This document shows, in pieces, positions 13,854 through 34,519 of a stretch of DNA of 64,000 nucleotides; the first letter of the stretch is position 1, and each line of letters opens with the position of its first letter. The DNA is from Armatimonadota bacterium (GTDB taxonomy: Bacteria; Sysuimicrobiota; Sysuimicrobiia; Sysuimicrobiales; Humicultoraceae). The position numbers and the translations under genes are program-made. The notes below the pieces were generated by a model, which saw only the letters and a program-made list of their open reading frames with translations, was not told the DNA's origin and did no database searches. The stretch spans positions 30,481 through 94,480 of the forward strand of contig JBQTJP010000110.1 of NCBI GenBank assembly GCA_052386995.1, read 5' to 3'.

Positions 13854-13874
13854 GATGACCCAGCCGCTGATGAC

Positions 13875-14783
13875 CTAGCCGCGGATGAAGGACTCGGGTG
13901 GCCTGGGGCCCCAGAGGTTGACCGCGCCGACACGTCCCCTGACGGGATCCCAGACCCCGGCCTCACGCATACCCTCGCCGTCGAAACGCACCGACTCTGC
14001 GAGAAGCTCCCACCGGATATTCCACGGATCCACGAAATACACGAACAGGCTGTTGCCGGGCCCGTGCCGCCCGGGGCCGTACTCGACCTGCACGCCAAGG
14101 GTGCCGAAGTGGTCGAGCATCCGGAGCATGTCGCTCCAGGACGCGATCTCGAGCGCGACGTGATGCAGACCCGGGGTCGAGGACCGTACCAGGGCGACGG
14201 TGGTATGCTCGTCTCCACAGCGCAGCCAGTAGAACTCGTCGGGGATGCGATCCGACAGGCGGAGGTCGAGGTGATCCTCCAGCCACCGTGCGGACGCGCC
14301 CACGTGTGGGCTGCGGAGATTGATGTGCGACAACCTCAGCAGATTGGCCGGTGAAGCTTCCGCCGCGGGCCGCGCAACAGGCGCGTCGGGAATCACCAGC
14401 TCCAGATAGAGTCCGTCGTCGTCCTGGAGCCGGACGGCCGGTCCGTGGACGGACTCCATGGCCGCGGGCCCCTCGACCGTCAGGCCGCGGCTACGCAACA
14501 TCGCAGCGGCAACATCCAGGGCGCCTTCATCGCGCACCGCCAGGGCATAGTGCGCCAAACCGAAAGGCTCGCCGGGGTACAGCACGAGTTCGTGGTGCGG
14601 CACCAGTTGCGCGCCGGCCGGTAGCGTGCTCATGAGCACCGCGCCCGTCGACGCGTCCCGACCGGTGATGCCGAGTCCCAGCACGCGGCGATAGTATTCG
14701 GCCGCGGCGTCCGGATCCGACACCCGGAACGTGACGTGATCCAGGTGCGTCACGGGGAGACGCTGGCCGGTGCGACCCGTCAT
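13875..14783 (-). CDS. Two-domain VOC (glyoxalase/extradiol dioxygenase-like) protein
   Basis: Two VOC modules and a C23O-like C-terminal motif (GPGRHGPGNSLFVYFVDPWNIRWEL). The start MTGRTGQ overlaps the CE4 stop (ATGA). Confidence 0.65.
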   Translation of the reverse strand: MTGRTGQRLPVTHLDHVTFRVSDPDAAAEYYRRVLGLGITGRDASTGAVLMSTLPAGAQLVPHHELVLYPGEPFGLAHYALAVRDEGALDVAAAMLRSRGLTVEGPAAMESVHGPAVRLQDDDGLYLELVIPDAPVARPAAEASPANLLRLSHINLRSPHVGASARWLEDHLDLRLSDRIPDEFYWLRCGDEHTTVALVRSSTPGLHHVALEIASWSDMLRMLDHFGTLGVQVEYGPGRHGPGNSLFVYFVDPWNIRWELLAESVRFDGEGMREAGVWDPVRGRVGAVNLWGPRPPESFIRG

Positions 14784-15664
14784 CGAGATCCTGGCTCCAG
14801 CCGGGCGGCGGGAGTCGCGGACGACCCGTCGGCCGTTCGAGTTCCGAGCTGATGCATCCGGGCGCGGAATAGTCGGAACCCATCGGTACGCAGCACGGGA
14901 TAGCGCCACAGCCGGTGAGGGCGGAGGGCGGCATAGGGATTCTTGCCAGGCCCTCCGAGCGCCGCGGTCGCGTAGCGTGGGGCCACCATCGGCTCAACCA
15001 CCGGCGACCAGCGACCCCAGGGGTATGCGAAGTGCCTCGGCGTCACCCCAAGGCGCCGCTGGATCATACGATCGCACTCGTCGAGTTCGGCAGCTGCCTG
15101 ATCCGGCGTCGTCTGCGACAGATCCACGTGGGTGTGCGTGTGGCTGCCGATCGCCACGAGTCCCGACCGCGCCATCTCGCCCGCCTGCTCCCAGGTGAGG
15201 GGCAACGGCCGGCGTTCCGGCGCGAGATTGCCGAAAGCACCGAAGTCGAACGGCCGCCGGGTCTCGACGTACATCGCGGGCAGATAGACGGTCGCGGGCA
15301 GTCCGTACCGACGCAGTACGGGATACGCCACGTCATACGTCTCGCCGTAGCCGTCGTCGAACGTAATGGCCACGATATCCGATGCGGCCTGACGGCCCGG
15401 AGACGCGCAGACCTCGGCCACATCGTCCAGCGAGACAACCCGGCAATGACGATGAAGACAGCGCATCTGCGCTTCGAAGGCGCGCTCCGTGACATCCACG
15501 TCGCTGCGCGTGTTGCCGCCGACGCGGTGGTACAGCAGCACCACGACGCCCGGCTCCGGGTGCGGCCGGACGGCCTGCAGCGGCAGCGCCAGCCACCGCC
15601 CGAGGCTGCGCGCCGTGCGTCCTGCCCCCATGATCCAGTCGGGCAACTCCATAGCGGCCGTCAA
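14780..15664 (-). CDS. Polysaccharide deacetylase (CE4 / NodB homology)
   Basis: TFDDGY and HTHTH motifs. Confidence 0.8.
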   Translation of the reverse strand: MTAAMELPDWIMGAGRTARSLGRWLALPLQAVRPHPEPGVVVLLYHRVGGNTRSDVDVTERAFEAQMRCLHRHCRVVSLDDVAEVCASPGRQAASDIVAITFDDGYGETYDVAYPVLRRYGLPATVYLPAMYVETRRPFDFGAFGNLAPERRPLPLTWEQAGEMARSGLVAIGSHTHTHVDLSQTTPDQAAAELDECDRMIQRRLGVTPRHFAYPWGRWSPVVEPMVAPRYATAALGGPGKNPYAALRPHRLWRYPVLRTDGFRLFRARMHQLGTRTADGSSATPAARLEPGSR

Positions 15665-16677
15665 AAAACCTCGATATCTCCGAGCGCCAGCCGCCAGGCG
15701 GCGAACGTCTTCGGATCCATCGCAGGTGCCGGTCCGAGCGGCCTCACGGTGAAATACGGGCCGCGGGGGACAGGTACAAATCCGAGGGAGAGCAGCACCG
15801 ACCGGTGCGGTGTTCGCCAGGCGCAGTGGGCGACGGCGTAGTCCGCGCCGCTACTAGACAGCACCTCGCGTACCACGCGGCGGCCGTCGGCCGGCCGGTC
15901 CATGAACAGTTCGCACAGGGTCAGCTCGCGCAGCCCCCGGCGCCGGGTCAACCGAAAGATCGCCGCCGCGCGCACTCCATCGCCCTCGATCCAGTGCGCC
16001 CCATAGCGCAGCGATGGCACCATGGCATACCGCCATCGCAGAAACGAAGGGCTGCGGGCCGTCCGTATCCCATCGCTCAGATGCGCATCGTCACAGGCCA
16101 GCAGATCTGCCACCGCGGCCTCGTTTGCCAGCAGCTTGTCGAGAAGGGGCAGGCGAACATCCCATCCCTCCTCACCGTCTTGGGGTGAGGCTCCACGACG
16201 GGACAAGACGGACCGGATCAAAGCGCCCGGCCGGACCGGCCGCACGAAGATGAGGGCGCGCCCGACATAGGTCCAGCCAAGTTTGATGTAGCCCGGCAGA
16301 CTGTATCGGTTGGGAGTGTTAAAGACCAGGTCGACGCCATCGAGGCGCGCGCGGTCCAAGCACGCGGCCGTCAGCCGTGAAAAGATGCCTTTTCGCTGAT
16401 GGTCAGGGTGCGTGGCGGTATCCACGGCGCGAACCGCGTGAATGACCTGCTCTCCGGCGCGGAACTGCCAGCGCAGAAAAGCGCGGAGGCCGACCACGTG
16501 CTCATTCTCTGCCAGCAGCATGAGCGACCGGCCAAAGGGATTCTCGATATGCTTCCAGCGGAAGAACGAAGTGGACCGCTCGAACGCCCGCCCGGTCCCC
16601 AGGGTCAGATTGAGCAGCCCCAGCACCTGGGCTTCATCGGCCGTCTCATAGTCGCGGACCATCAGGGGCGCGGTCAC
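15661..16677 (-). CDS. GNAT-family acyltransferase with a C-terminal extension (two-lobed)
   Basis: N-terminal GNAT acetyl-CoA motif (HQRKGIFSRL); 338 aa. Confidence 0.55.
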   Translation of the reverse strand: MTAPLMVRDYETADEAQVLGLLNLTLGTGRAFERSTSFFRWKHIENPFGRSLMLLAENEHVVGLRAFLRWQFRAGEQVIHAVRAVDTATHPDHQRKGIFSRLTAACLDRARLDGVDLVFNTPNRYSLPGYIKLGWTYVGRALIFVRPVRPGALIRSVLSRRGASPQDGEEGWDVRLPLLDKLLANEAAVADLLACDDAHLSDGIRTARSPSFLRWRYAMVPSLRYGAHWIEGDGVRAAAIFRLTRRRGLRELTLCELFMDRPADGRRVVREVLSSSGADYAVAHCAWRTPHRSVLLSLGFVPVPRGPYFTVRPLGPAPAMDPKTFAAWRLALGDIEVF

Positions 16678-17798
16678 GATCGCTCACCCCAGAGTAGACC
16701 TGCGTACACCTGCTCGATCGCCGCCACCATGTGCCCCACCCCGTATCGGGTCCGCGCGCGCGCTCGCGCCGCGGTGCCCATACGAACCCTGAGGTCGGGT
16801 GAGGCGACCAGCGCGCTGAGGGCATCGGCCAGCGCCTGAGGATCCTCGGGCGGCACCAGCAGACTGCTGGCCTCGTCGGTGGCTTCGGGAATCCCGCCCA
16901 CGCGCGTCACCACGCTGGGTTTCCCGAGCGCCATCGCCTCCAGCAGCGCCACGGGCAACCCCTCGTAGATGGAGGACAGCACAAAGATGTCCGAAGCCGC
17001 CACCAAGCGCACCGCGTCGGGCCTGAACCCCGCAAACACGAGCCGGCCGTCCAGACCCAGGCGGTCGGCCTCGATGCGCAGGGCGTCGGCCCGAGGCCCC
17101 TGGCCCACGATGAGGAAGCGTGCGTCCGCGTGCCGGGCCGCGACCTTCACCGCCGCCGCGAGCAGATGGGTGTGGCCCTTCTTGGGTGTCAGGTTTCCCA
17201 CTGTGACCACGACGAGCGCATTCGCAGGGAATCCAAACTCTCGGCGCAGGGCGTCCGGCGCAACCGGCAGGGTGGCGAGCCCTTCGGCGTCCACGGCGTT
17301 GGTGACCGTCAGGACCTGCGGGCCGCCGGCCGCATACCCTTCGACCGCGCGACGCACCTCGTCGGACACCGCGATGACCGTGTCGTTCAGCCGATAGGTG
17401 CAGTGGTTGAGGATGCGCATCGGCAGGGAATAGCGCTGAGGCACGTTGTGCTCGGTGTAGACAACGCGCGGCCGCCCGGCAAGGGGGGCGGCGATCCGTC
17501 CCCACACGCCGGCCATCGGCAGGTGCGCATGGATGAGATCGATACGCTCGCGCCGCACCAGGCGCACGAGGCGCATGAACGCTCGGGGATCACCCTCGAC
17601 TCTCATGTTCAGGTCGTGGACGGGGACGCCCGCGGCCTCAAAGGACGGCACCAGCGCGCGCTTCCACGGCAGCATGTAGGCCACGCGATACACAAACCGG
17701 TCGCGATTCAAAAAGGGCAGCGACGCTTCCAGCAGCCGCTCCGCGCCGCCGATGCCCAGACCCTTGATCAGGAGAAGAATGCGCGCGCGCTCGGGCAT
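16674..17798 (-). CDS. GT4-family glycosyltransferase
   Basis: GT-B fold with the GT4 C-terminal motif (SSIYEGLPVALLEAMALGKP). The start is MPERARILLL. Confidence 0.8.
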   Translation of the reverse strand: MPERARILLLIKGLGIGGAERLLEASLPFLNRDRFVYRVAYMLPWKRALVPSFEAAGVPVHDLNMRVEGDPRAFMRLVRLVRRERIDLIHAHLPMAGVWGRIAAPLAGRPRVVYTEHNVPQRYSLPMRILNHCTYRLNDTVIAVSDEVRRAVEGYAAGGPQVLTVTNAVDAEGLATLPVAPDALRREFGFPANALVVVTVGNLTPKKGHTHLLAAAVKVAARHADARFLIVGQGPRADALRIEADRLGLDGRLVFAGFRPDAVRLVAASDIFVLSSIYEGLPVALLEAMALGKPSVVTRVGGIPEATDEASSLLVPPEDPQALADALSALVASPDLRVRMGTAARARARTRYGVGHMVAAIEQVYAGLLWGERS

Positions 17799-17799
17799 G

Positions 17800-18948
17800 T
17801 TATGCGTGGACCCGCCGGCCATTGCGGAGGCCGGTGTAGACCTCCGCGTACTGCGCCGCGATGCGGCCGATCTCAAAGGCCCGGCAGGCCGTGCGCGCCG
17901 CAGCCCCCATCGCCTCTCGCCGGCCGCCGTCGATGGCCAGACGCGTCACCGCGTCGGCCAGCGCCTGCTCGTCGTTGACGGCCACCAGGGCCCCGGTTTC
18001 TCCGTGGCGGACGACCTCATCGATGCCACCGACGTCGTACGCGACGACCGGCAGGCCCGCCAGACCGGCCTCGATGATGGCCGCGGGCATCCCCTCTGTC
18101 AGGCTTGGAAGGACGAACAGGTCCGCGCCGGCAAGCAGCGCGGCCACATCGCCGGTCGTGCCCGCCAGCCACACCAGCCCGTCGAGGCCAGCGCGGTGGA
18201 TCGCGGCTTCGATCGCCGGACGCTGCGGACCATCGCCGACGAGCCACAGACGGGTCGCTACCCCGCGGCCGCGCAGCGAGGCGACGAGGCGGATCAGCGC
18301 TCCGTGGTTCTTTTCCGGAGACAGACTGCCGACGTGCGCCAGCACGATCTCCCCCGGCGGGACCGCGGCCTTCGCACGCACCCGGGCGCGAAGGTCCGCC
18401 GACTGCGTGAGAAACGGCGCGGCGTCGACGCCGTTGGGGATGACCGCGACCCGCTGCGGAGGGAGCCCGACGCGCTCGACCAGCTCCGTCGCCGCGCGAC
18501 GGCACACGGCCACGACAAGATCGGCCTGCCGGAACCACCACCGGTACGCCGCAGCGCGCAGCGGATCGCGCCGCCAGTAGGACGGCATGCCAATGGTCCG
18601 GTAGACCAGTGGCCAGCGGCCTCGAGTGATCAGGCGCGTCGTGGCAAGGTACTTCAGCGTCGCGGCCCCATTGGCCTGAACGATCGGCTCTCCGGCCGAG
18701 GCGATGCAGTCGGCGATGGCGCGCACCAGGCGCAGCGACAGCGGCCCCGCTGGCCGGCGGTCGGTCAGCGTCCCACCCCACACCCCGGCGGTGGCGGCAG
18801 CGTCGGCAAATCGCGGGTCCCCGGGGAACAGGCCGACGATGGTCGATTCCCACGACCGATGCCGGAGCGTCGCCGACAGCTGCAGCGCGAACGTCTCCGC
18901 GCCGCGGCGCTGCGGAGCTTGGATCATCTGCAGAACGCGCTCACTCAT
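17800..18948 (-). CDS. GT4-family glycosyltransferase
   Basis: GT4 motif (PSLTEGMPAAIIEAGLAGLP). Confidence 0.8.
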   Translation of the reverse strand: MSERVLQMIQAPQRRGAETFALQLSATLRHRSWESTIVGLFPGDPRFADAAATAGVWGGTLTDRRPAGPLSLRLVRAIADCIASAGEPIVQANGAATLKYLATTRLITRGRWPLVYRTIGMPSYWRRDPLRAAAYRWWFRQADLVVAVCRRAATELVERVGLPPQRVAVIPNGVDAAPFLTQSADLRARVRAKAAVPPGEIVLAHVGSLSPEKNHGALIRLVASLRGRGVATRLWLVGDGPQRPAIEAAIHRAGLDGLVWLAGTTGDVAALLAGADLFVLPSLTEGMPAAIIEAGLAGLPVVAYDVGGIDEVVRHGETGALVAVNDEQALADAVTRLAIDGGRREAMGAAARTACRAFEIGRIAAQYAEVYTGLRNGRRVHA

Positions 18949-19934
18949 ACGGGCGACGCGACGCGAATCTCATAGCCCCAGTGGGGCTCGCCGTCAACAA
19001 GCCTGGGGTCGATCTCCAGCCGCAGGCGCTGCCCGGCGCGAAGCCTCGGCTGCTCAAGCACGGGAAAGTACATCTGCGACCAGTTCGTCAGCGGCAGGCG
19101 CGGCGAGTTTGAGAGCGGCACACCCGGAGTGAGTACAGCGTCAAACCAGCCGAGGAACCCATCCAGTCGTCCCTCTCGCAGCACCGAAAATTCAAGGACC
19201 TCGGCGCCCGGCGCGCTGCCATCGCGGTGGTAATCCACGTGCCAGCAGCGGATCGGCTCTGCCAGCTCCACGAAGCGCTTTCCCGATGCCTGAACGGTCT
19301 CGGGTTCCTGATACAGCGCCCGGCGAAACAGCGAGTAGTCCCAACCATAGACGCGCTCTGGCATCCGCCCCAGGCCAAATTCCCCGGAGTGAACGGGCAT
19401 GAGGACCGTGTCAGACGATTCAGGAATGATCCGCGATCCCGGCTTCAGCATCCGCCGCCGCGCATCCGCCACGTACTCGATGATGTTCTCATTGTCGAAC
19501 CCACACGTGCTGAGCGTCTCGGTGACCAGGAGATCACCCCGTTCCGGCAGGTCTACGTGCCTCGAGTTCCCCCGGACGAGAATCACGCGGTCCCCGAGCC
19601 CGTTTTGCTCGATCAACTGCCTGGTCAGGTCCGCGATGGGACCGAGCTCTATCGCATACACGCGCTTCGCACCCGCCTGGACGGCAAAGAAGGAGAGCAG
19701 GCCGGTGCCGGCGCCCAGATCCACCACCACGTCCTGAGGACCCACCGTGCGCGCCAAAGCGTCACGGTACGCTTCGCAGCGCGCGGTATCGAGCAGCATC
19801 TTCTCCTGCATCTTCGGGCTGGCAAAGTTTTCGGCGACACGCAATTCGCGCAGGAGCGGCCAGTGGGCCGCGCGCTTGAGCACGCCGCGGAGCCTCCACA
19901 GCCCAGACGCCAGCAACCGTCGCGCCAGCCCCAT
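18945..19934 (-). CDS. PRMT-fold (protein arginine N-methyltransferase-like) SAM-dependent methyltransferase
   Basis: PRMT motif I (VVDLGAGTGLLSFFAVQAGAKRVYAIE), a double-E loop-like segment (GDLLVTETLSTCGFDNE), motif III (MLKPGSRIIPES) and a THW-like loop (PHWGYE). Confidence 0.65.
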   Translation of the reverse strand: MGLARRLLASGLWRLRGVLKRAAHWPLLRELRVAENFASPKMQEKMLLDTARCEAYRDALARTVGPQDVVVDLGAGTGLLSFFAVQAGAKRVYAIELGPIADLTRQLIEQNGLGDRVILVRGNSRHVDLPERGDLLVTETLSTCGFDNENIIEYVADARRRMLKPGSRIIPESSDTVLMPVHSGEFGLGRMPERVYGWDYSLFRRALYQEPETVQASGKRFVELAEPIRCWHVDYHRDGSAPGAEVLEFSVLREGRLDGFLGWFDAVLTPGVPLSNSPRLPLTNWSQMYFPVLEQPRLRAGQRLRLEIDPRLVDGEPHWGYEIRVASPV

Positions 19935-19944
19935 GCCGCTGCTC

Positions 19945-20928
19945 CTATGCCGGCTTTTGGATCACGAGGTTGGAAATCATCGGCATGGCCGCGGTGATGG
20001 GAACCCGCGTCCACCTCGTGATGGAATGGTAGATCACGGATTCAAAGACACGCCTCTTCCAACTCTGCGCGCCTCCCGTGTAGTTGACGTGCCGGTCGTG
20101 ACCCGGCAGCCCGTTCACCACGCGTAACGGCCGGCCGCGAAGGTAGCGCACGATCTCGAAGAACGTGGCTCCCCACGCCCCTCGTTCTTCCAGGCCCAAG
20201 GGCCCGTCGGAGTGCGTCGCGGGGTTATCGATGTGCTGTCCTGCACGGACCGCCCTGGCGTACGCCCACATCGACCCTGGCGAGCTCCACGGAATCCACC
20301 ACAAGCCGGTCGTGTGAGAATCCTTTGGCCACAGCCTGTTCGGCGTCTCGTTGATGTACAGATGGCCCCCCGGGTTGAGGGCATCGAACAGCCGCGCGAC
20401 CACCCGTCGCCTCAGGCCCCTGATCGACAGGGGGAGATGCTCGAGCACGGCATGGAGCAGGATGAAATCGAAGGTCCCCACGTCTGCGGCGATCTCTTCG
20501 AAATCGCGCGCCCACACCACCCGAACGCTGTCGAGCAGCCGGTGCTCTTCCAGCCTCTTGAGGCACACGGCGACGCTCTTCTCATCGATATCGAAGGCCA
20601 CGAGCCGCTCACAGTGCGGGGCAAGCGCGGCTGTCGCAGACCCCGTGCCGCAGCCAAAGTCCAGGACACGCTTGGCCGAGAGATCGCCGCAGTGGTATCG
20701 AATCTCGGGATACAACTGCGTCTCGAACCGACCCAACCGGCTGTCCGGCCCACCCATGTGTTCGGCAATGTAATCCTCATAGGCCGGCAGGCCCTCCTTG
20801 CCCCTGTGCAGGTCGACGATGAGCCGCTTGAACTCCTGGGAATAGTCGCGAGTGCATCCGGAAAGCCTCACTTCCACGCAATGGTCCACGTCAACGCGTT
20901 CTTCTGGGATCAGCAGCCCCTGGCGCAT
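19945..20928 (-). CDS. Class I SAM-dependent methyltransferase
   Basis: VLDFGCGTGSAT motif I, acidic motif II (AFDIDE). Confidence 0.7.
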   Translation of the reverse strand: MRQGLLIPEERVDVDHCVEVRLSGCTRDYSQEFKRLIVDLHRGKEGLPAYEDYIAEHMGGPDSRLGRFETQLYPEIRYHCGDLSAKRVLDFGCGTGSATAALAPHCERLVAFDIDEKSVAVCLKRLEEHRLLDSVRVVWARDFEEIAADVGTFDFILLHAVLEHLPLSIRGLRRRVVARLFDALNPGGHLYINETPNRLWPKDSHTTGLWWIPWSSPGSMWAYARAVRAGQHIDNPATHSDGPLGLEERGAWGATFFEIVRYLRGRPLRVVNGLPGHDRHVNYTGGAQSWKRRVFESVIYHSITRWTRVPITAAMPMISNLVIQKPA

Positions 20929-20983
20929 CCGAATTCTCTCTCATCGCCATATCGCCGCCAGATCGACAACCGCACCAATCCTT

Positions 20984-22567
20984 TCAGGGTCCGTCTCGGC
21001 CGATCAGGGCGCCTGCACTGAGCCGCGCGCCTTCGCTCCCATCCATCTCGGCAAGCCCGCCTTCTGCACGCCCTCCGGCCCGCCCAAAGTTTCCGCGAAG
21101 CATATCGATGAATGTGAACACCACCTGGCGCTCGGTCAAGAGGATGACCGCTCCGTAGACAACAATCCCGACGGCGACCTCGAGGATCAGGGTCACGAGC
21201 GCGGCGGTGCCCGCCGCCTTCAGCGCCCAATCCACCAGCACCACGCTCGCGATCATGACGGCGCATCCCACGAGGCTCGATCGCACCGCCTCCCACACGT
21301 CGTGGGCCGTTATCCCCAGCACCGACGCCACAAAGCGATGCTGGACCGGCACCAGAATCGCGGTAGCGGCGAGATATCCGGCGGCCACGCCGACGATGCC
21401 CCACCGCAGCCCGATGGCAAACGCCGGGAGGTACAGCAGCAGCGAAAGAAACGTCCATCGCAGCTGCAGATCAGCGCGACCGGCCGCGAGGAGTCCGCTG
21501 AACCACAAGGTCGTCACCAGCTGAAACGTCCCCGCAAACGCCAGGACGCGTATGACCGGGGCCGATGGCAGCCATTTTGCGCCGAAGACCACCTCGACCG
21601 CCGGCGAGGCAACCAGCGCCAGCCCGACCATGACCGGCAGGGCTATGATCGCGACATGTTGCGTCGCAATGAGAAACCCCCGCCTGAGCCGAGCCGTGTC
21701 ATGCTGGACCTTGGAAAAGGCCGACAACATCACCTGATGGAGCGGCGCGGCAACGTCCTGGAGCGGGATCCGGAACGCCGTATACGCGAGCGCATAGTAC
21801 CCCAGAGCAATTGGGCCAAGGAACCGGCCGATCAGCAGGTTGTCGAGATTTCGGATGAAGTAGCTAAAGAGCCGCGAGAGCGTGAGCGGCGTGCTGAACG
21901 ACCAGAGATCCTTGAACTTCGGCCATGAGAATCGCAGGGTCGGCTTCCACCGCGTGGCGAGATAGTAGGCAACCGGGGCCGTGGCGGAGCCGGCAAGCGC
22001 TTTGCCTACCAGACTCCAGACACCCGTGCCGGCCAGGGCCATCCCGAGCCCGGTCAGGCCGCCGACAACCACCGCGGCCGCGTCGCACAACGCCAGCGCA
22101 CGGTACTCCATGCGGCGCGCAGCGAGCGCGAAGTGCGTCACCCATGTGGCGGAGATCACGATGCGGAAGGAGAGGATGACGAGCACCGTCTCCGCGAGCG
22201 GATCCGCCAGAAACGCGCCGGCCAGAGGGGCAGCGGCGAGCGCGATTGCGAACAGAAACGCCCCGACGACCAGGCTCGTCCAGAAGGCTGTCGAGAGGTA
22301 TTCATCGTCCACATCACGCCGCTGGATGATCGCCGACCCACCGCCGGCTTCAAGGAAGAGCTCGAGGAATCCCACAACCACCCACCCGATGGCGATAAGA
22401 CCATAGTCACGAGGAAGGAGGAGTCGAACCAGAATGACTGTGAACACCTGGTCCAACCCTCGCGCCGCGACACGCTGGCCTCCCAGCCAGAACATGCCTT
22501 GCATCGCGGCCGCGCGAATGCGCGGCACCGGATGGCCGTGGGGCCGCACGGTCTCGACCATCGTCAA
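20984..22567 (-). CDS. wzx: Wzx-type flippase (MOP/PST family), paralog of 1102-2622
   Basis: Multi-TM protein about 45% identical by eye to the first Wzx (e.g. LWSFSTPLTLSRLFSYFIRNLDNLLIGRFLG against LWSFGGPLFLSRLFGYAVRNTDNLLIGRYLG). Confidence 0.8.
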   Translation of the reverse strand: MTMVETVRPHGHPVPRIRAAAMQGMFWLGGQRVAARGLDQVFTVILVRLLLPRDYGLIAIGWVVVGFLELFLEAGGGSAIIQRRDVDDEYLSTAFWTSLVVGAFLFAIALAAAPLAGAFLADPLAETVLVILSFRIVISATWVTHFALAARRMEYRALALCDAAAVVVGGLTGLGMALAGTGVWSLVGKALAGSATAPVAYYLATRWKPTLRFSWPKFKDLWSFSTPLTLSRLFSYFIRNLDNLLIGRFLGPIALGYYALAYTAFRIPLQDVAAPLHQVMLSAFSKVQHDTARLRRGFLIATQHVAIIALPVMVGLALVASPAVEVVFGAKWLPSAPVIRVLAFAGTFQLVTTLWFSGLLAAGRADLQLRWTFLSLLLYLPAFAIGLRWGIVGVAAGYLAATAILVPVQHRFVASVLGITAHDVWEAVRSSLVGCAVMIASVVLVDWALKAAGTAALVTLILEVAVGIVVYGAVILLTERQVVFTFIDMLRGNFGRAGGRAEGGLAEMDGSEGARLSAGALIGRDGP

Positions 22568-22932
22568 GAGTCTCTAACGGCGTAGATAATGGAAGGATCT
22601 AGTCCGGCCGGCCCCGGAAGCACGCTGAAACCCTCGCCGATTTCCATTTCGGGAATCGCGGTGTAGGACCGCCGTTCAAAAATCTCCTTGATGAATCCGA
22701 AGTCCACGCGGGCCCAGTGGAGCTTCTTCCCTCGGAAGGGACGCCGGAAGCTTACCCGTCCCAGACGATCGTAAATGGCCGCGAGCGCCCTCCGTCTCGT
22801 CAACGACACCCACGACAGCAGCAGGAACCGCATGGTGACACGCGGGCCGAACCAGCGCCACGCCGTACCGCTGAGCGCGAGCAGTCTCCTGGCACCGCGC
22901 AAGCGAGACCTCAAAAACGTGCTCGGTGCCAC
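22564..22932 (-). CDS. Hypothetical protein
   Basis: It fills the gap between the flanking genes exactly, with a 4-nt overlap and a 15-nt gap. No recognisable domain. Confidence 0.3.
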   Translation of the reverse strand: MAPSTFLRSRLRGARRLLALSGTAWRWFGPRVTMRFLLLSWVSLTRRRALAAIYDRLGRVSFRRPFRGKKLHWARVDFGFIKEIFERRSYTAIPEMEIGEGFSVLPGPAGLDPSIIYAVRDS

Positions 22933-22947
22933 TGCCTTCCCCTTCCA

Positions 22948-24144
22948 TCAGGCTCTCTCAACCCGCGAGCCATCGAGATGCGCAGAGGCGGCATGGTCCG
23001 ACTCGCCATGCACAAGCGCCTCGTAGAGATGCTGATAGGCTTCAGCCATCTGGCCGATGTCGAATAGCCGTCGCGCTCGCTCTTGACCTGCTTCACCCAA
23101 CTGCTTCCTACGGGCGGCATCTCGAAGGAGTTCTGTGGTCGCCCGGATGAGCGCGCCGGCATCTCCGGGCAGACAGAGACGCCCGGTGCGCCCTTCTTGA
23201 ACCTGATCCACGACGCCACCGACGCTTGTGGCGACAACCGGTAGACCCGCCGCCATGGACTCCAGGATGGTGAGAGGAAAACTCTCGTAGTTTGACGTCG
23301 ACAAGAAAAGATCCGATGCGTGGTAAAGATCCACAAGGTCCGTCCTGAGCCCCAGAAATCTGATCGCGTTCTGCAGACCCTCCTTGCGAACGGCGCTCTC
23401 GAGTGCTGGGCGTTCCGGTCCATCACCGGCTACCAGAAAAACCGCCCTGTCGACCGTCGCGGCCACCTGACGGGCCACCTCGACGAACAGCGCGACATTC
23501 TTGACCGGCACGACCCGAGCCATGTACAGCACCACTAATGCGTCGTCCGAAAGCTGGTTGCGCCTGCGCCATACGTGACGCGGCGTGCGCGGGGACGCAA
23601 AGGACGCCGTGTCGATGCCAGTAAGGATCATCGCAATCGAGTCCGCACCGAGCCCAAACGCTTTGGCGACATTGTCGCGCGTGTCGGTGGAGTGCACGAC
23701 AGGTCGATAGCCCAGCCGGCGGGCCATGAATCTCTGGCTTGCGGTATTGAGCCGCGACAGTTGGCCGCCGTCCGGGCCGGTATGGATATCCAGGAGCCTG
23801 CCCCTGACGGCCCGACCGAGAAGATCAGACGGGATCGCATACCACGCGATCCCGGTATACGCGTGCAACACATCTGGCCGAACCTTCCGCACCACGTGCG
23901 CCAGTTCCCACATCAGCCTGCCCTGCAGCCCGATGCCGGCATCCCGCGGCATGTTCAGGGGATGGAACGTCACGTGATTCCCGATCTCGGCGAGGTCGTC
24001 TTCGGGGAGCAGTGGCCTCGCGGTGCAGGCGTGGAGCTCAAAACGCTCGTTGTTCACCCGTCGCAAGAGATCGCGGATAAACCGTGGCACACCGCCCGCC
24101 TTAGACAGCCTCCAGGTGAAATGGAGCACGCGAATCCGTCTCAT
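22948..24144 (-). CDS. GT4-family glycosyltransferase
   Basis: GT4 motif (STSNYESFPLTILESMAAGLPVV). The start MRRIRVLHF overlaps the upstream stop. Confidence 0.8.
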   Translation of the reverse strand: MRRIRVLHFTWRLSKAGGVPRFIRDLLRRVNNERFELHACTARPLLPEDDLAEIGNHVTFHPLNMPRDAGIGLQGRLMWELAHVVRKVRPDVLHAYTGIAWYAIPSDLLGRAVRGRLLDIHTGPDGGQLSRLNTASQRFMARRLGYRPVVHSTDTRDNVAKAFGLGADSIAMILTGIDTASFASPRTPRHVWRRRNQLSDDALVVLYMARVVPVKNVALFVEVARQVAATVDRAVFLVAGDGPERPALESAVRKEGLQNAIRFLGLRTDLVDLYHASDLFLSTSNYESFPLTILESMAAGLPVVATSVGGVVDQVQEGRTGRLCLPGDAGALIRATTELLRDAARRKQLGEAGQERARRLFDIGQMAEAYQHLYEALVHGESDHAASAHLDGSRVERA

Positions 24145-25346
24145 GTGCGCGCGGGGATTCCTTGGGCGCGGGCGCCGCCATCGACAGCGACGCTTTGGAA
24201 CAGTGCCTCGAGGGCCGCCACGACGGTCACAATATCGTAGCGTGAGCGCACCCATGTGCGCCCGTCCTCGCCAAGCTGCCTGGCGAACTCGCGATCCTCT
24301 GCCAGGCGCAGGAGTTGAGCGGCGAGGCTTGCAGGCGACTGTGGGTCGGCCAGCAACGCCACGGTGCCGTCCCCTGTGACCTCGCGAAGCACGGGTATCC
24401 GACTAGCCACGCATGGTTTGCCCGCCGCCATTGCTTCCAGCAGGGCATTTCCAATGCCCTCATAGAGCGACGGGAACACAAAGATGTCGGCCGCCTGCAG
24501 CAATGCGGGGATGTCTCGCCGCTCGCCAAGCAGCGTCACATGGTCACCCAGGCCTTGCGCCCGGATTGACTGCTCCAGCGTGGAGTGAAACCACCCGTCG
24601 CCAGCGAGAACGAGGCGTGCCCGCGGAAACCTGGTCAGGACCTCCTTCATCGCGGCAATGGCGTAGGGCTGTCCCTTCTGCGGGACGAGCCGGGCCACGT
24701 TCAAGATGACCGGATAGGCGTCTTCCCATCCCAGGGCTGCCCGAACCGCCCGTGGGTCGCCCCCCTCGCGCGCGGCATAGTCATCCAGCGCCAGCCCCCG
24801 CGGAATCACGGCGATGCACTCCGGGCGTAGCCCCAACTGGCGCACCGCCGACGCTTTGACGCTTTGGGTGATTGCCACGAATCGGGTTCCCCACCATCTG
24901 GCAGTCAGCCCGTCCAAAGCCTGCGTGATCCAGACCTTCCAGCCCTTCACGTGAGGGTTGTCCAGGCGCCACTCCGGCTCGTAGGTCGTATTGACTAGGG
25001 TCGTGATGACCGGGATCCCGGTCACTCTCCCGACGCACCGGCTCGCGATACCCGGACGGTAGAGGGCGGCGTGAAGAAGATCCGGCGCGAGGGCTCGGAC
25101 GAGACGCCACAGCCGGACCGCTGCACGACCCAGATCCCTCCTGGACGTAACGCCGAGGATGTGGACAGGGATACCGAGCCCTTCCAGATCCGCGACAAAG
25201 CGGCCGCCCTCCGAGAGCGCACACACCTCGTGACGAAAGCGGCGTGGGTCTGAGCGCGACAGGAACGCGATCATCTGCCGCTCCGTCCCTCCGGTGTCCA
25301 GGTCATCAAGGACATGCAAAATGGTGATCCGACGACTATCAGCCAT
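24141..25346 (-). CDS. GT4-family glycosyltransferase
   Basis: GT4 motif (PSLYEGIGNALLEAMAAGKPCV). Confidence 0.8.
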   Translation of the reverse strand: MADSRRITILHVLDDLDTGGTERQMIAFLSRSDPRRFRHEVCALSEGGRFVADLEGLGIPVHILGVTSRRDLGRAAVRLWRLVRALAPDLLHAALYRPGIASRCVGRVTGIPVITTLVNTTYEPEWRLDNPHVKGWKVWITQALDGLTARWWGTRFVAITQSVKASAVRQLGLRPECIAVIPRGLALDDYAAREGGDPRAVRAALGWEDAYPVILNVARLVPQKGQPYAIAAMKEVLTRFPRARLVLAGDGWFHSTLEQSIRAQGLGDHVTLLGERRDIPALLQAADIFVFPSLYEGIGNALLEAMAAGKPCVASRIPVLREVTGDGTVALLADPQSPASLAAQLLRLAEDREFARQLGEDGRTWVRSRYDIVTVVAALEALFQSVAVDGGARAQGIPART

Positions 25347-25427
25347 TGGACGGCATCGGCAGGCTATCGAGTTGAGCTGTGTCTGATGGAGGGCTCTCTA
25401 TGATCGATCCGTGCCTTGCGACGTCCG

Positions 25428-25462
25428 CCCTGGGGGGTCGACACCCTCCGACCGCCCCAGGG
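25428..25462 (-). terminator. GC-rich hairpin 18 nt downstream of the G8 gene stop. It lacks a U-tract and is a possible terminator or RNA-stability element.
   Basis: CCCTGGGG-GGTCG..loop..CGACC-G-CCCCAGGG, about 13 bp of stem. Confidence 0.35.
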
Positions 25463-25480
25463 CAGCAATCTCAGACGAAC

Positions 25481-27964
25481 CTAGAACCTTCTCACTCGAA
25501 GTACACGGCTGGCATTGACAGTCCCATTGCTGCCGATCCCCAGAGCCCAGAAGTACGCCCGGCGCGGCGGGTGGCTGCCCATGCTGAAGCTCATCGAGGC
25601 GAACCCGCGGACCGTTCGCACCCGCTCGAGTCTCTGGTTGGCCTGGTAGAACTCGACCTCGGCTGCGTTGGTCTCCACGGTCAAGGTAATCGTCCCGGTG
25701 GCCACGAGGTCATCGTTCGGCGCCGACCACCGCACGCGCGGCGTCTGTGGGCGGGTCCCCGTGCCATCGTTGTCCCTGCGGCGGGCGTTGTACTCAGAGT
25801 CCACAACGCCCGCCGCTCCATCCTCTCTGTGGAAGAGCGTAAAGTCTCCTGGGCGCGAGAGCCCGCGCTGCTGGCGGAATCGCAGCTGGCTGCCCGGTGG
25901 AGGTGCATCGGCCCCGCCGAACCAGATGCCGCGGCTCGGCGAGAACTGTACGCGCGCGAATTGCACCACCGATCGCTCACCCGGGCCATTACGGTCCTGC
26001 GAGTGCCGCACGTTGAAGGCCGTGACGTTCCGGACGACACCGTCCTCATAGACCGAATCGAAGCTTGACGCCGCAACGTACGACTGGATCTCAACACCAG
26101 TCGCCCCGACGCCCATGCCGTCGGCGAGGAACCCCGTGAATCCCCACAGCGCGGGAACTGACCCGGCATGGCCACTCGTCCAGTGCGCGATCTGCGCATG
26201 TCGGTTGCCCAGCGATCTAAGCCCGTGCAGCCAGTAGGCCGTGATGTAGGCTCCCCACCCGAGGCCGACTTCATTCCTCCACGTCAGGAGGTCGACGATA
26301 CGCTGAGTGGGCGTGAGATTCTGCCATGAGTGAAATCCCATGGCCGTATTGGAATTCGCTTCCGCCCGAAACACGTGGGGCGTTTCTCCGTAGTCCGTCC
26401 CGCCCTCAGGCCAGTGAATTCCCGACGACCGCGCGGAAGGGAATCCGTCCGCGGCGCTGCTTCCGGCCGCGACTGCCCCGACGATCGCGCAGTTGCGGCT
26501 TCCGTCCATCCAGATGCCGGCGTTGCGGGCATTCCGGCTGTTCCCCCATCGCATGACCAGCACGCGATCGAGCCAGCAATCGTCCGCCGCGTGATACTGG
26601 TTGTGGTTCGGCCCGACCGCATTGACGCAGAAGGACTCGAACCGGCACTCCAGCATCACCGGGGTTGTGCTTTCTATATCGTCTTGCCGCGCATTGCGGA
26701 CGGAATGCCGGGAGTGGTCGTAGACCACGAGGTCCTCCACGGTGATGCCGAAGGAGCCGTGGATATGCAGACCGTCCCCGGGCCCGCCGGCCAGGACAAC
26801 GCGGCGGAGGTAACTGCCCCGCGAACCGTCAAGCTGCCTGTGACTGTGCCAGGCGTACCGGCCCATGGGCTCCCGTGTGGGCGCCGGCGAGAAGTTGTAG
26901 ACTGCCAGGTTCTCGACATAGTACCTCGCGCGGTCCATAAACATCACATGCGGCCGGTGATTCGGGTCGCCCGCCTCGAAGATGACATTGCTCGTCAGGT
27001 TGGCCACCTTGGCCGTCAACCGCTCCGTCCAGGAGTCGCCCCACGCGTCCTGCCAGCCGACTGAGAGCGCCTCATGTGTGTACCGCAAGCCCGAATCCAG
27101 CTGGAACCGGCCGTGACCGAGGTCGGCGGTGATCCGGCGCACTTCGTCCTGGTGATCGTTCTCGTTGGCCCGCAGATTCGACGGTCCCACGACCACTCGA
27201 TCGCCCACCCTCCAGCCGGCCGCAAAAGCGGGATCGACGGCAATCTCAGCGCTCCCGGCTCGTGCTGTCTCGGTCAGCGGGGACCAGGTGTCCCGATAGA
27301 CGCCGGCTACCCACACTTGAGCGCTGTCTATGGCCCACAGGCCCACATCGGTCGCGAGGGGCGCCATCACGTTGCCACCAACATACTGGCCCTCGTTCAG
27401 GAACCACCGGATGGAGGCCGGAACCGTGACTCGATCGCTCGCGCGGCCGTAGTCCAGCACCCCCCGGACAACGAGGTTGCCATAGAGCGTGAGCCGCGAG
27501 GCCCTGCCACGGCTCGCGCGGAGCGTACCGTCGACCGTGACTGTCCGGGCTTCCGCGGCTTCCGTGTCGACTTCGATCACTCGCCCCGCCGGAATGACGA
27601 CATCGTTGTCCCGTGTGGGGACGCGGCCGGACGGCCACGTCGCGGGGTCGCTCCAGCGAAGCCCTCCGGATGATGGAGGAGGGGTTGGCGGGATCGGCGT
27701 GCGCGATGGGACGGGCGCGGGCGGTGTTGGTGCGCCCGGGGTCGGGGCGGGTGTTGGCGCAGGCGTCGGCTGCGACGGCGGCGGTGTGGGCTGTCCTGGC
27801 GTGGGCTGACCTGGAGCCGGCGTAGGTGGCGCAGGTGGTGAAGTGGGCTGCGGTGTCGGTCGCGGTTTTCCACCAGGCGGCGGCTGGGCAGAAATCAGAT
27901 TCGGAGAGGGGAGCGCGAGGGTGAGGGCGACGAGGAGTGAGAGGGAGAGAAGACGCAGACGCAC
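25481..27964 (-). CDS. Secreted G8-domain / right-handed beta-helix protein (CEMIP/TMEM2-like). A glycan depolymerase or modifying enzyme is likely.
   Basis: GTG start, a signal peptide, a ~70-aa Pro/Thr-rich linker and a G8-like N-terminal segment (RWSDPATWPSGRVPTRDNDVVIPAGRVIEVD...TVDGTL). A long beta-helix-like region follows. Confidence 0.6.
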   Translation of the reverse strand: MRLRLLSLSLLVALTLALPSPNLISAQPPPGGKPRPTPQPTSPPAPPTPAPGQPTPGQPTPPPSQPTPAPTPAPTPGAPTPPAPVPSRTPIPPTPPPSSGGLRWSDPATWPSGRVPTRDNDVVIPAGRVIEVDTEAAEARTVTVDGTLRASRGRASRLTLYGNLVVRGVLDYGRASDRVTVPASIRWFLNEGQYVGGNVMAPLATDVGLWAIDSAQVWVAGVYRDTWSPLTETARAGSAEIAVDPAFAAGWRVGDRVVVGPSNLRANENDHQDEVRRITADLGHGRFQLDSGLRYTHEALSVGWQDAWGDSWTERLTAKVANLTSNVIFEAGDPNHRPHVMFMDRARYYVENLAVYNFSPAPTREPMGRYAWHSHRQLDGSRGSYLRRVVLAGGPGDGLHIHGSFGITVEDLVVYDHSRHSVRNARQDDIESTTPVMLECRFESFCVNAVGPNHNQYHAADDCWLDRVLVMRWGNSRNARNAGIWMDGSRNCAIVGAVAAGSSAADGFPSARSSGIHWPEGGTDYGETPHVFRAEANSNTAMGFHSWQNLTPTQRIVDLLTWRNEVGLGWGAYITAYWLHGLRSLGNRHAQIAHWTSGHAGSVPALWGFTGFLADGMGVGATGVEIQSYVAASSFDSVYEDGVVRNVTAFNVRHSQDRNGPGERSVVQFARVQFSPSRGIWFGGADAPPPGSQLRFRQQRGLSRPGDFTLFHREDGAAGVVDSEYNARRRDNDGTGTRPQTPRVRWSAPNDDLVATGTITLTVETNAAEVEFYQANQRLERVRTVRGFASMSFSMGSHPPRRAYFWALGIGSNGTVNASRVLRVRRF
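27664..27883 (-). repeat. Low-complexity Pro/Thr-rich linker coding repeat inside the G8 gene
   Basis: Reiterated (PTPAP/PTPGQ)n codons. Several spurious antisense ORFs arise here. Confidence 0.5.
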
Positions 27965-28029
27965 GGATCACCTCCGATTTATCCAGAAGCTCTCCGTCGG
28001 TCGGGGAACGCTGCAGGACCGTCCTTCTC

Positions 28030-28135
28030 TTCGGCAGCCCGGCTGTCTTGGAAGTATCGTCCAAGACCCGTAGCTTTGCGTCCCCGAATCACTTCGGGTT
28101 TGCCCTTGTCGGAGAGTTCCGGTGAATGGGATCTC
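28030..28135 (-). ncRNA. Candidate c-di-GMP-I (GEMM) riboswitch in the 5' leader of the G8/beta-helix gene
   Basis: The minus-strand RNA reads ...GGGCAAACCCGAAGUGAUUCGGGGACGCAAAGCUACGGGUCUUGGACGAUACUUCCAAGAC... It carries the conserved GGCAAAC element, a P2 hairpin capped by a GNRA tetraloop (CCCGAA-GUGA-UUCGGG), the invariant GGACGCAAAGC element and a P3 hairpin (GUCUUGG...CCAAGAC). An SD (GGAGG) and a GTG start follow about 60 nt downstream. Confidence 0.5.
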
Positions 28136-28980: not shown

Positions 28981-28986
28981 CGCGGT

Positions 28987-30081: not shown

Positions 30082-30084
30082 GAC

Positions 30085-30807: not shown

Positions 30808-30861
30808 GGCAGGTGTCGTTCACGATCTCTTGCCGCCCCGACGTGCCACGGGCCATCGTGG

Positions 30862-31680: not shown

Positions 31681-31704
31681 AGATTCGTTAAGTCGAGCCT
31701 GGGG

Positions 31705-33030: not shown

Positions 33031-33077
33031 CGCGCGAATGCCTCCTTGAAAATCCCGGGAGCCCGGGCGCAGGCAGG

Positions 33078-34427: not shown

Positions 34428-34492
34428 TGATAAGGCTCCGCCGTCCCGGGTACATTCCCCAGGCGAATGATGGCCAAAATTGGACGAGCGCA

Positions 34493-34510: not shown

Positions 34511-34519
34511 CTCCCTGCC

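Follow-up and report, generated by a model that had tools for sequence, protein, structure and literature searches.

Methylation of arginine counts as a hallmark of eukaryotes, and the locus described here raises the question of what a gene resembling those for eukaryotic protein-arginine methyltransferases (PRMTs) might be doing among the exopolysaccharide (EPS) genes of a bacterium. The window, a stretch of 64,000 nucleotides from an Armatimonadota bacterium, carries this gene between those for a conventional class-I methyltransferase and a GT4 glycosyltransferase (Table 1), exactly where the initial annotation had placed it, down to the limits of the open reading frame and a 4-nt overlap with the GT4 gene, in which the stop codon of the one and the start codon of the other share ATGA. 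At its opposite end the Shine-Dalgarno sequence (AGGAG, with a spacer of 10 nt) coincides in part with the stop codon of the preceding methyltransferase gene, and the PRMT-like gene is a translationally coupled member of a Wzx/Wzy EPS operon. Its dN/dS against the sister locus (L003) is 0.127, and because of this ratio of about 0.13 we conclude that it is a functional gene under purifying selection. A basic N-terminal helix opens the protein, followed by a Rossmann SAM domain and by a PRMT beta-barrel whose dimerisation-arm region is shortened; since neither a transmembrane segment nor a signal peptide was detected in its sequence, the protein is predicted to be cytoplasmic.

Table 1. Positions in the window of the PRMT-like gene, of the elements of its product, and of the surrounding EPS locus.
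Feature	Position	Strand	Detail or basis
PRMT-like methyltransferase gene	18945..19934	minus	329 aa, ATG start
Family-specific basic amphipathic N-terminal helix (codons 1-35)	19830..19934	minus	charge, hydrophobic moment, model
Motif I VVDLGAGTGLLS (aa 69-81), SAM-binding glycine loop	19692..19730	minus	PRMT6 alignment
Double-E loop E139-TLSTCGFDN-E149	19488..19520	minus	aligned to PRMT6 VSEWMG-YGLLHES
THW-loop equivalent L-T-N-W-S-Q (aa 282-287)	19074..19091	minus	aligned to PRMT6 ATHWKQ
Upstream class-I SAM methyltransferase (Methyltransf_11/12/25)	19945..20928	minus	stop overlaps PRMT-like Shine-Dalgarno sequence
Downstream GT4 glycosyltransferase	17800..18948	minus	ATG overlaps PRMT-like stop
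Putative transcription unit including the PRMT-like gene	14780..27964	minus	Pfam, NCBIfam
Upstream part of the same EPS locus	28189..38405	minus	domain searches
c-di-GMP-I-GGC riboswitch aptamer, 5' leader of the G8 gene	28029..28113	minus	Rfam RF03167

Searches against solved structures returned a PRMT signal that lies far beyond chance. By phmmer, the PDB matches (aa 33-290) included PRMT6 (8e-29), CARM1 (4e-27), and yeast Hmt1 (8e-26), and with a family profile PRMT6 was matched at 1e-44, the best 60 of 70 matches all being PRMTs, and eukaryotic ones. The PRMT-specific C-terminal beta-barrel is present, both as a Pfam PRMT5_C match on aa 245-327 (31.4 bits; cutoff 30.3) and in the structure comparison, which finds the full barrel and arm retained; in PRMTs, barrel and arm form the peptide groove and the dimer. 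The best matches go to these enzymes, and not to generic class-I small-molecule methyltransferases lacking the barrel, and the PRMT fold first proposed for this protein, barrel included, is upheld by phmmer, profile, and structure comparison alike. By these comparisons it is a genuine PRMT-fold enzyme, closely related in structure to the protein-arginine methyltransferases of eukaryotes. PRMT6 heads the sequence matches, followed by CARM1, Hmt1, and then PRMT8, PRMT3, PRMT1, and PRMT2, with PRMT7 and PRMT9 weaker and PRMT5 reached by fold only. Type I PRMTs are accordingly the best sequence matches and the catalytic core appears to resemble theirs, a ranking of nearest type that cannot give the product type (MMA, ADMA, or SDMA).

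The residues that would carry catalysis were followed through 26 aligned close relatives and 66 wider relatives at 31-51% identity. Three of the four motifs named in the initial annotation held up on alignment with PRMT6, namely motif I with its post-I glutamate (E96), the double-E loop, and motif III (LKPGSRIIP); motif I, E96, and LKPGSRIIP are invariant in the family, and the glycines G74, G76, and G78 of motif I are unchanged even in the 66 distant sequences. Likewise D49, R52, D72-S81, E96, E139, E149, W285, and Q287 are invariant in the 26 close relatives and kept in 58-66 of the 66 others, the double-E glutamates E139 and E149 in 63 and 58 of them, respectively. The fourth motif was misplaced: PHWGYE (aa 317-322) had been taken as THW-like, but it is P-L-T-N-W-S-Q (aa 281-287) that aligns with P-A-T-H-W-K-Q of PRMT6. 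The Thr of this loop is mostly retained, and its His is replaced by Asn here, at a position held in the wider set by Ser (28), His (21), Asn (8), or Ala (4).

Several features set the protein apart from the eukaryotic type I PRMTs (PRMT6, CARM1/PRMT4, PRMT1/Hmt1, PRMT8, PRMT3, and PRMT2), besides its bacterial host, its place in an EPS operon, and the Asn of its THW loop. The double-E loop has one residue (N148) more than that of PRMT6, an insertion present in only 2 of the 66 wider bacterial relatives, and within the catalytic core it is modelled with the lowest confidence (pLDDT 62); because of this insertion and the low model confidence there, acceptor specificity could differ from that of the eukaryotic enzymes. 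At the arm position, a helix-containing insertion (aa 183-211) is about eight residues shorter than its PRMT6 counterpart; for the eukaryotic type I enzymes, dimerisation is a requirement. Within the N-terminal alpha-X/alpha-Y region, the invariant R52 corresponds to the SAM-contacting R54 of PRMT1 and the M46 equivalent is retained, whereas the YFxxY motif has shrunk to AENF, with F37 alone conserved, and the equivalent of PRMT1 H45 is Gln (His in 59 of the 66 wider relatives). The YFxxY-type start is replaced by a basic helix of about 35 residues, with a net charge of +6 in this protein (range +3 to +9 among the 26 aligned relatives), and a hydrophobic moment of about 0.5. Modelled at residues 2-22 (pLDDT about 60) and containing a segment of LRRWF+R type that is conserved among relatives, this helix may act as a membrane or nucleic-acid tether, or as a pseudo-substrate.

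Bacterial homologues had been assumed to be rare and essentially uncharacterised. Rare they are not: the close subfamily has at least 534 matches at E<=1e-3 (90%-identity clusters), and among all 50%-identity representatives 655 clusters pass E<=1e-30 and 5,937 pass E<=1e-10, the best 150 clusters listed scoring 148-322 bits against 104 bits for the best solved eukaryotic PRMT. The latter assumption appears right, as no solved bacterial PRMT is among the structure matches listed, and the literature searched yielded neither a characterised bacterial PRMT nor a PRMT in an EPS cluster. The gene belongs to a large, highly conserved bacterial branch in which guanidinium- and SAM-binding residues are conserved, and within it to a subfamily of soil bacteria (Armatimonadota, Acidobacteriota) that is tightly conserved and is distinguished from the eukaryotic enzymes by the N-terminal helix and the additional double-E residue. 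Members of the wider PRMT-like radiation (for example L007 Holophagales, L008 Gammaproteobacteria, L010 Acidobacteriota, and L012, a Cyanobacteria-labelled MAG) are of the 300-400 aa class and 31-43% identical; they share a PF22528 PRMT_C match above cutoff and the conserved double-E and Trp residues, but differ in their canonical E-x8-E spacing, their mostly retained His at the PRMT1 H45 position, and the absence of the basic helix. Some are fused to a SEC-C motif, to about 650 aa of C-terminal sequence that weakly matches a sulfotransferase, or to a 500-aa N-terminal extension. Comparative genomics has already described bacterial PRMT-like 'peptide methylases,' considered the stock of the eukaryotic PRMTs, which sit with genes for NRPS, peptide dioxygenases, and LSD1-like amine oxidases, or within giant synthetases (Aravind and colleagues; PMC3417536). 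These belong to the same superfamily and likewise occupy biosynthetic operons in bacteria, whereas no NRPS, peptide dioxygenase, or LSD1-like gene lies near the PRMT-like gene, the neighbors of which encode glycosyltransferases, a flippase, and sugar-tailoring enzymes.

The putative transcription unit that includes the PRMT-like gene encodes, in order of transcription, a G8/beta-helix secreted protein, two GT4 glycosyltransferases, a truncated FkbM-type methyltransferase, a Wzx flippase, the class-I methyltransferase, the PRMT-like protein, two further GT4 enzymes, a tandem GNAT protein, and a polysaccharide deacetylase. It is collinear with L003 at 78-81% nucleotide identity and contains no excess of terminator-like sites over shuffled sequence, and is probably co-transcribed. 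The FkbM-type gene has decayed to a remnant of 122 codons, and an additional 211-aa methyltransferase of L003 is missing from the window. Upstream, the same EPS locus encodes a Wza-type exporter, a Wzz-like protein and a P-loop kinase-like protein, a NusG paralogue, UDP-glucose dehydrogenase (UGDH), a putative Wzy with 10 TM segments, Methyltransf_24, a GNAT protein, a deacetylase, and a TylF-type methyltransferase, and the locus as a whole has two deacetylases and three conventional sugar-type methyltransferases. On the strand that also carries the PRMT-like gene, and about 8 kb upstream of it, the c-di-GMP riboswitch is matched over its full length (73.2 bits against a gathering score of 59; E=1e-17), and because the operon lies downstream of it, the PRMT-like enzyme would be made together with the EPS machinery. 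The same riboswitch class precedes the G8 orthologue in L001. Near PRMT-like genes, such riboswitches were found only in the window and L001 (via the G8 gene) and in L047 and L048; a family-wide link to c-di-GMP was rejected, as none was found near the gene in 15 other loci examined.

How closely the enzyme is tied to glycan synthesis is addressed by the genomic settings of its relatives. A metagenome scan with the single protein yielded one real relative, and a contig scan with a generic motif-I pattern returned at least 28 loci, about 15 of them real. Among the loci examined, placement in an EPS operon is confined to the window and L003 (about 80% nucleotide identity), where the position of the gene is conserved. 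Relatives that are 52-77% identical, with an invariant active site, occupy many unrelated neighborhoods: MOSC_N/DinB_2 genes in four Acidoferrum-type loci; a position after dnaX-ybaB in one locus and before recR in another of the same clade; a DUF1508 gene with a 4-nt overlap; DinB; GerE/COX; and hydrolase/aldolase genes. An independent relative in L038 (58% identical) has an Asn-synthase-like gene and a GT4 gene immediately upstream, and in about a dozen other loci glycan genes are not adjacent; the glycan-gene association, in-operon in the window and L003 and by adjacency in L038, is not conserved across independent lineages of the subfamily. Distant bacterial PRMT-like genes adjoin genes related to proteins or peptides, such as those for MsrA and an M16/PqqF-like peptidase.

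Given these settings, our preferred explanation, to which we give about even credence, is that the protein N-methylates arginine at the guanidino group, probably within a peptide or protein, and is co-expressed with EPS genes in this lineage. SAM would be held by motif I, E96 (ribose), and R52 (carboxylate), and the guanidinium clamped between E139 and E149, beside the conserved W285 of the THW loop, whereupon one terminal guanidinium nitrogen would be methylated. As the same enzyme with an invariant active site recurs in so many unrelated neighborhoods, the substrate is most likely an arginine of a peptide or protein, something that all these organisms share, and not a lineage-specific sugar. 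In the window and one sister genome, the gene has become a translationally coupled member of an EPS operon downstream of a c-di-GMP riboswitch. Tight embedding in an operon is normally read as a functional pathway link, and counts against this explanation, as do the GT4 neighbor in L038, the substituted and variable THW His, the insertion in the double-E loop, and the shortened arm. Nor was a candidate protein substrate found in the window, which encodes no RGG/GAR-rich protein: among its 56 ORFs, one RG/GR-dense tract was matched, in the first 40 codons of ORF 31705-33210, a spurious match that stems from an over-extended TTG start overlapping the UGDH gene. The G8 protein (signal peptide, PT-rich linker, G8 domain, and beta-helix) had also been suggested as the substrate; it lacks an Arg-Gly-rich tract and is linked to the enzyme only by synteny, which holds in L001 too, and we rejected it.

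Glycan tailoring is the reading that the operon itself invites, and one we consider unlikely. The enzyme would methylate a nitrogen on the Und-PP-linked EPS repeat unit, at the cytoplasmic face and before Wzx flipping, the acceptor being a guanidino or amidino group, or a free amine of an amino sugar exposed by the deacetylases of the operon, with the basic amphipathic N-terminal helix providing a hold on the membrane. Coupling at both ends between a methyltransferase and a GT4 gene, a position conserved in the sister operon, purifying selection on the gene, the two deacetylases that would expose sugar amines, the L038 relative that directly follows Asn-synthase-like and GT4 genes, and the N-terminal helix itself are all consistent with such a role. 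Relatives that are 52-71% identical and have identical catalytic residues nevertheless reside in loci without glycan genes, three conventional sugar-type methyltransferases are already at hand in the operon, and the literature searched yielded no carbohydrate-modifying enzyme of PRMT fold. Moreover, the window cluster was found to contain no amidinotransferase, acetamidino-forming (Asn-synthase-like or PP-loop) amidotransferase, or aminoacyl-transferase gene, and its tandem GNAT protein is Eis-like or glucosamine-N-acetyltransferase-like, not FemX/MprF-like. An acetamidino or guanidino sugar was rejected on these grounds, and the guanidino- or amino-sugar substrate of the initial annotation, like its PT-linker protein substrate, is left unsupported.

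It is more doubtful, to the point of being quite improbable, that the substrate is free L-arginine or some other soluble metabolite with a guanidino group, the methylated product either entering the EPS pathway or having nothing to do with it. MOSC enzymes reduce N-hydroxylated guanidines and amidines, and in Acidoferrum-type genomes the orthologue is coupled to a MOSC_N/MOSC gene (4-nt overlap in L035), an association from one closely related lineage that amounts to a single observation. A possible precedent is SznE of streptozotocin biosynthesis, a bacterial SAM-dependent methylase of the guanidino group of free arginine in a natural-product pathway, a homologue of which is surrounded by glycosyltransferase and tailoring genes in the saskemycin cluster (PMC12637814). 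The lack of a conserved protein partner would also suit a small-molecule substrate, whereas retention of the full barrel and arm argues against one, and the window encodes no downstream arginine-derivative chemistry in the vicinity of the gene. We give virtually no credence to the public record, in which a 100%-identical MAG protein is named "50S ribosomal protein L11 methyltransferase" (PrmA). Pfam does return a PrmA match (27.9 bits, aa 59-141), but this is limited to the shared class-I Rossmann core; the NCBIfam equivalog TIGR00406, with a cutoff of 183, gives a score of 27.8, short of a full-length match, and PrmA, a lysine/N-terminal methyltransferase of L11, has an N-terminal L11-binding domain and lacks the PRMT barrel detected here. 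Score and barrel together refute the name.

The importance of these findings is limited by their origin in an uncultured MAG, and by a glycan link from a single lineage. They correct a public misannotation, and provide a handle on the locus, in the form of a defined operon, an upstream c-di-GMP riboswitch, and a sister genome for comparison. It is a tentative and rather doubtful proposal that a PRMT-fold enzyme was recruited here as a dedicated part of a c-di-GMP-riboswitch-controlled EPS pathway. Its target there would be either a nitrogen-bearing substituent of the lipid-linked sugar repeat unit or an arginine in a protein that is secreted or serves EPS assembly, the co-regulated G8/beta-helix protein being one example. 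Were the sugar nitrogen the target, this would be the first carbohydrate-directed PRMT; were it a protein, arginine methylation would be linked to the production of biofilm matrix in bacteria.

Three independent tests, of sequence, of fold and of catalytic residues, identify the product of the PRMT-like gene as a protein arginine methyltransferase (PRMT), an uncharacterised member of a known superfamily rather than a new kind of enzyme. When all PDB chains were searched with phmmer, the leading matches were PRMT6 (8e-29), CARM1 (4e-27) and yeast Hmt1 (8e-26), followed by PRMT8, PRMT3, PRMT1 and PRMT2, and the match (residues 33-290) extends into the barrel domain; a profile built from 26 relatives recovered PRMT6 at 1e-44, and the best 60 of its 70 matches at E<=1e-10 are all PRMTs. 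Best matches to a generic class-I methyltransferase clade devoid of the barrel would have spoken against the initial annotation; the best matches go to PRMTs instead. Pfam PRMT5_C passes at 31.4 against a cutoff of 30.3 (residues 245-327), PRMT_C falls slightly under at 22.8 against 27, and the arm region (residues 183-211) is present, albeit about eight residues shorter than in PRMT6. The protein has the PRMT fold and is cytoplasmic in character; it passes the structural and motif tests for superfamily membership, with departures at the THW histidine and at the YFxxY motif, of which F37 alone is kept.

In the HMMER alignment with PRMT6, VVDLGAGTGLLS pairs with motif I, E96 with the post-I Glu, VTE139TLSTCGFDNE149 with the double-E loop VSEWMG-YGLLHES, and LKPGSRIIP with motif III, as initially proposed; PHWGYE, however, had been mistaken for the THW loop, and PRMT6 PATHWKQ pairs with PLTNWSQ, so that the actual loop reads T-N-W. 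Asn therefore replaces the canonical His, at a position which varies among 66 wider representatives at 31-51% identity (Ser in 28, His in 21, Asn in eight, Ala in four). D49, R52 (the SAM-carboxylate Arg), D72-S81, E96, E139, E149, W285 and Q287 are invariant in all 26 relatives (50-76% identical), and these catalytic residues are kept in 58-66 of the 66. The subfamily differs from canonical PRMTs in a double-E loop that is one residue longer (N148, found in two of the 66); this loop is the least confident stretch of the modelled core (pLDDT 62). Also subfamily-specific is an N-terminal basic amphipathic helix of ~35 residues, with a net charge of +3 to +9 in every one of the 26 members and a hydrophobic moment of ~0.5, preceding a mostly acidic catalytic core. 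The predicted SAM-binding and guanidinium-binding residues are conserved, and the protein would be catalytically active, using SAM to methylate a guanidino nitrogen.

The identical protein in NCBI (P0001), encoded on a 114.7-kb contig of an Armatimonadota MAG, bears the name "50S ribosomal protein L11 methyltransferase". As the match to the PrmA equivalog is limited to the Rossmann core and reaches 27.8 bits where the cutoff is 183, and the fold is that of a PRMT, this name is a misannotation. The close subfamily comprises at least 534 matches at E<=1e-3 among 90%-identity clusters, of which the best 120 are 52-84% identical, include several labelled Acidobacteria MAGs, and often carry the JGI name "protein arginine N-methyltransferase 1". 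When 1.84 billion 50%-identity representatives were scanned exhaustively, 10,803 clusters passed E<=1e-3, of which 5,937 also passed E<=1e-10 and 655 passed E<=1e-30; the best 150 (148-322 bits) all exceed the best solved eukaryotic PRMT (104 bits), and are 300-400 residues long at 31-43% identity, besides a few fragments 50-60% identical. Given these thousands of clusters, bacterial PRMT homologues are not rare, as had been supposed; the companion claim that they are essentially uncharacterised agrees with our literature and solved-structure searches, in which no bacterial member turned up as biochemically or structurally characterised. Among species-representative genomes, PRMT-like proteins occur in Acidobacteriota, Holophagales, Gammaproteobacteria, Myxococcales, a Cyanobacteria-labelled MAG and Silvanigrella; several clear the PRMT_C cutoff, and further modules are fused to some of them. 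Two uncultured Gammaproteobacteria chromosomes (L016 4843-10799, and L017) encode a 962-residue protein that is PRMT-like in its N-terminal part and weakly matches Sulfotransfer_4 in its C-terminal part. Its gene shares an overlap with the end of a gene for an M16/PqqF-like peptidase, and the pair could be a peptide-tailoring system. A PRMT-like protein of a Gammaproteobacteria MAG (L008 6862-8960) combines strong PRMT_C (86 bits) with a C-terminal SEC-C zinc motif, and lies ~0.5 kb downstream of an MsrA (peptide methionine sulfoxide reductase) gene and beyond a 148-residue ORF without Pfam family.

The gene lies inside a complete Wzx/Wzy-type exopolysaccharide (EPS) locus of ~24 kb, all on the minus strand, and is coupled into its operon: AGGAG lies over the stop codon of the upstream methyltransferase gene, 10 nt ahead of the ATG. 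The initial annotation had placed the gene, its neighbours and the 4-nt GT4 overlap correctly, and the codon-position pattern is that of a real gene (GC3 0.79, GC2 0.46; window G+C 66%).

Features of the window EPS locus, in order of transcription, followed by related features of subfamily loci in other genomes
Feature	Locus	Positions	Strand	Remarks
Wza-type exporter	window	37404-38405	minus	
Wzz-like protein and P-loop kinase-like protein	window		minus	
NusG-family paralogue	window	34520-35038	minus	172 aa
UDP-glucose dehydrogenase	window		minus	
10-TM putative polymerase	window	31705-33210	minus	ORF; no Pfam family
Methyltransf_24, then GNAT, deacetylase, TylF-type methyltransferase	window		minus	
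Gap between TylF-type methyltransferase and G8 genes	window			225 nt
c-di-GMP-I-GGC riboswitch aptamer, full-length	window	28029-28113	minus	RF03167, 73.2 bits vs gathering score 59, E=1e-17
G8/beta-helix secreted protein	window	25481-27964	minus	PT-rich linker
Two GT4 genes	window		minus	after G8 gene
FkbM-type methyltransferase remnant	window	22564-22932	minus	122 codons
Wzx flippase	window		minus	
Class-I methyltransferase	window	19945-20928	minus	directly upstream of PRMT-like gene; ends in TAG
PRMT-like ORF	window	18945-19934	minus	329 codons, ATG start
GT4 glycosyltransferase	window	17800-18948	minus	directly downstream; start shares ATGA with PRMT-like stop
Second GT4, then tandem GNAT	window		minus	
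Deacetylase	window	14780-15664	minus	last of locus
c-di-GMP-I-GGC aptamer, full-length	L001	3985-4078	plus	RF03167, 67.8 bits; directly upstream of G8 gene
PilZ-domain gene	L037	815-1162		
PilZ-domain gene	L004	18416-20272		
PilZ-domain gene	L034	16425-16760		
PilZ-domain gene	L035	14775-15164		
MOSC-linked locus	L034	7166-8987		
MOSC-linked locus	L035	7198-8999		
MOSC-linked locus	L004	8186-10939		
MOSC-linked locus	L006	6243-8939		

The ~10-TM protein is probably the Wzy polymerase, and the NusG paralogue may be an antiterminator dedicated to this operon, of the RfaH/LoaP type. The window aptamer fills part of the gap directly upstream of the G8 gene, at the head of the series of genes to which the PRMT-like gene belongs; since terminator-like sites between the two are no commoner than in shuffled sequence, the PRMT-like gene may be part of a riboswitch-led transcript. 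Several subfamily members have a gene for a PilZ-domain protein (a c-di-GMP receptor) at a distance of 1-9 kb. Riboswitches and PilZ genes together suggest a loose link to c-di-GMP, although in soil bacteria this may be coincidence. Elsewhere in the window, a second glycan locus (1102-8785, minus strand) encodes another Wzx-type flippase, a PglF-like 4,6-dehydratase, a DegT aminotransferase, a Bac_transf initiating transferase and a GT4. Between it and the main locus lies a block of CoA-transferase, thiolase, hydratase and extradiol-dioxygenase genes (9246-14909) that is syntenic in the sister MAG. Origin-proximal genes (parB, parA, rsmG (GidB), recF, gyrB) occupy 49518-61810, where ORFs 55319-56671 (450 aa) and 56878-57987 (369 aa), located where dnaA and dnaN would be expected, are candidates for these genes.

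The EPS-operon context is conserved only narrowly. Collinearity between the window and the sister MAG (L003), at 78-81% nucleotide identity, extends from the G8 gene to the CoA-transferase genes, and the L003 PRMT-like gene, 77% identical, holds the equivalent slot; with a dN/dS between the two loci of 0.127 against 0.13-0.26 for its neighbours, the gene is under purifying selection, equally or more constrained. Operon methyltransferase content differs between the two, as the window remnant corresponds to residues 38-150 (69% identity) of a 322-residue FkbM-type (Methyltransf_21) enzyme intact in L003, and an extra 211-residue methyltransferase of L003 is missing from the window. The relative in L001, a related MAG (71% identical), belongs to no operon: its neighbours are two divergent genes of unknown function and one for a histidine kinase, and upstream of it come a riboswitch-plus-G8 module at 3.4 kb and DegT and PglF-like genes at 8-10 kb. 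The L038 relative (58% identical) follows an Asn-synthase-like gene and a GT4; the other subfamily loci examined contain no glycan genes. Where P0024, another relative, is encoded, the gene is just downstream of dnaX and ybaB, and in L046 (379-2040), of the same clade, it is directly upstream of recR, which suggests a place within the widely conserved dnaX-ybaB-recR cluster, adjoining the nucleoid-associated protein gene. In L047 (1000-2644) and L048 (401-2045), it overlaps a 69-residue DUF1508 (YegP-like) gene by 4 nt and is convergent with a DUF5658 gene, which itself follows a c-di-GMP-I riboswitch (RF01051, 52.8 bits). Single loci place it with DinB, with a GerE regulator and cytochrome oxidase, or with a hydrolase and aldolase, and more distant bacterial relatives adjoin MsrA, M16/PqqF-like peptidase, GNAT with STAND NTPase, or FGE-sulfatase genes.

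Because a conserved enzyme with an invariant active site recurs in so many unrelated neighbourhoods, its substrate is most likely one common to all these bacteria, and we give roughly even chances to a guanidino-nitrogen methylase acting on arginine in a peptide or protein. Window-encoded proteins contain no Arg-Gly-rich tract; the one apparent match, in ORF 31705-33210, was rejected as an artefact of its mechanical TTG start, which reaches 133 nt into the UDP-glucose dehydrogenase gene and gives the protein a spurious Arg-rich N-terminus, the true start likely being the Met at about 33030. A role in glycan tailoring or the EPS machinery, kept in play by operon membership and the L038 adjacency, seems clearly less likely; support for glycan tailoring itself is limited to the synteny of one lineage. 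A search of the EPS cluster for a route to the guanidino-bearing sugar initially envisaged, or to an arginine-bearing one, found none, and no amidino- or acetamidino-forming enzymes were detected.

Still less probable is methylation of free arginine or a small guanidine, in the manner of SznE (PMC12637814). Four Acidoferrum-type loci carry a MOSC_N/MOSC gene directly upstream of the orthologue, with or without a class-I methyltransferase (in L035 the two genes overlap by 4 nt), and DinB_2 further upstream in three (L004, L034, L035). MOSC enzymes reduce N-hydroxy-guanidines and amidoximes, and this coupling hints at guanidine chemistry; suggestive as it is, it counts as a single lineage. What is unusual about the enzyme is where its gene lies, in an EPS operon downstream of a c-di-GMP riboswitch, and the bacterial PRMT-like family to which it belongs is worth an assay.
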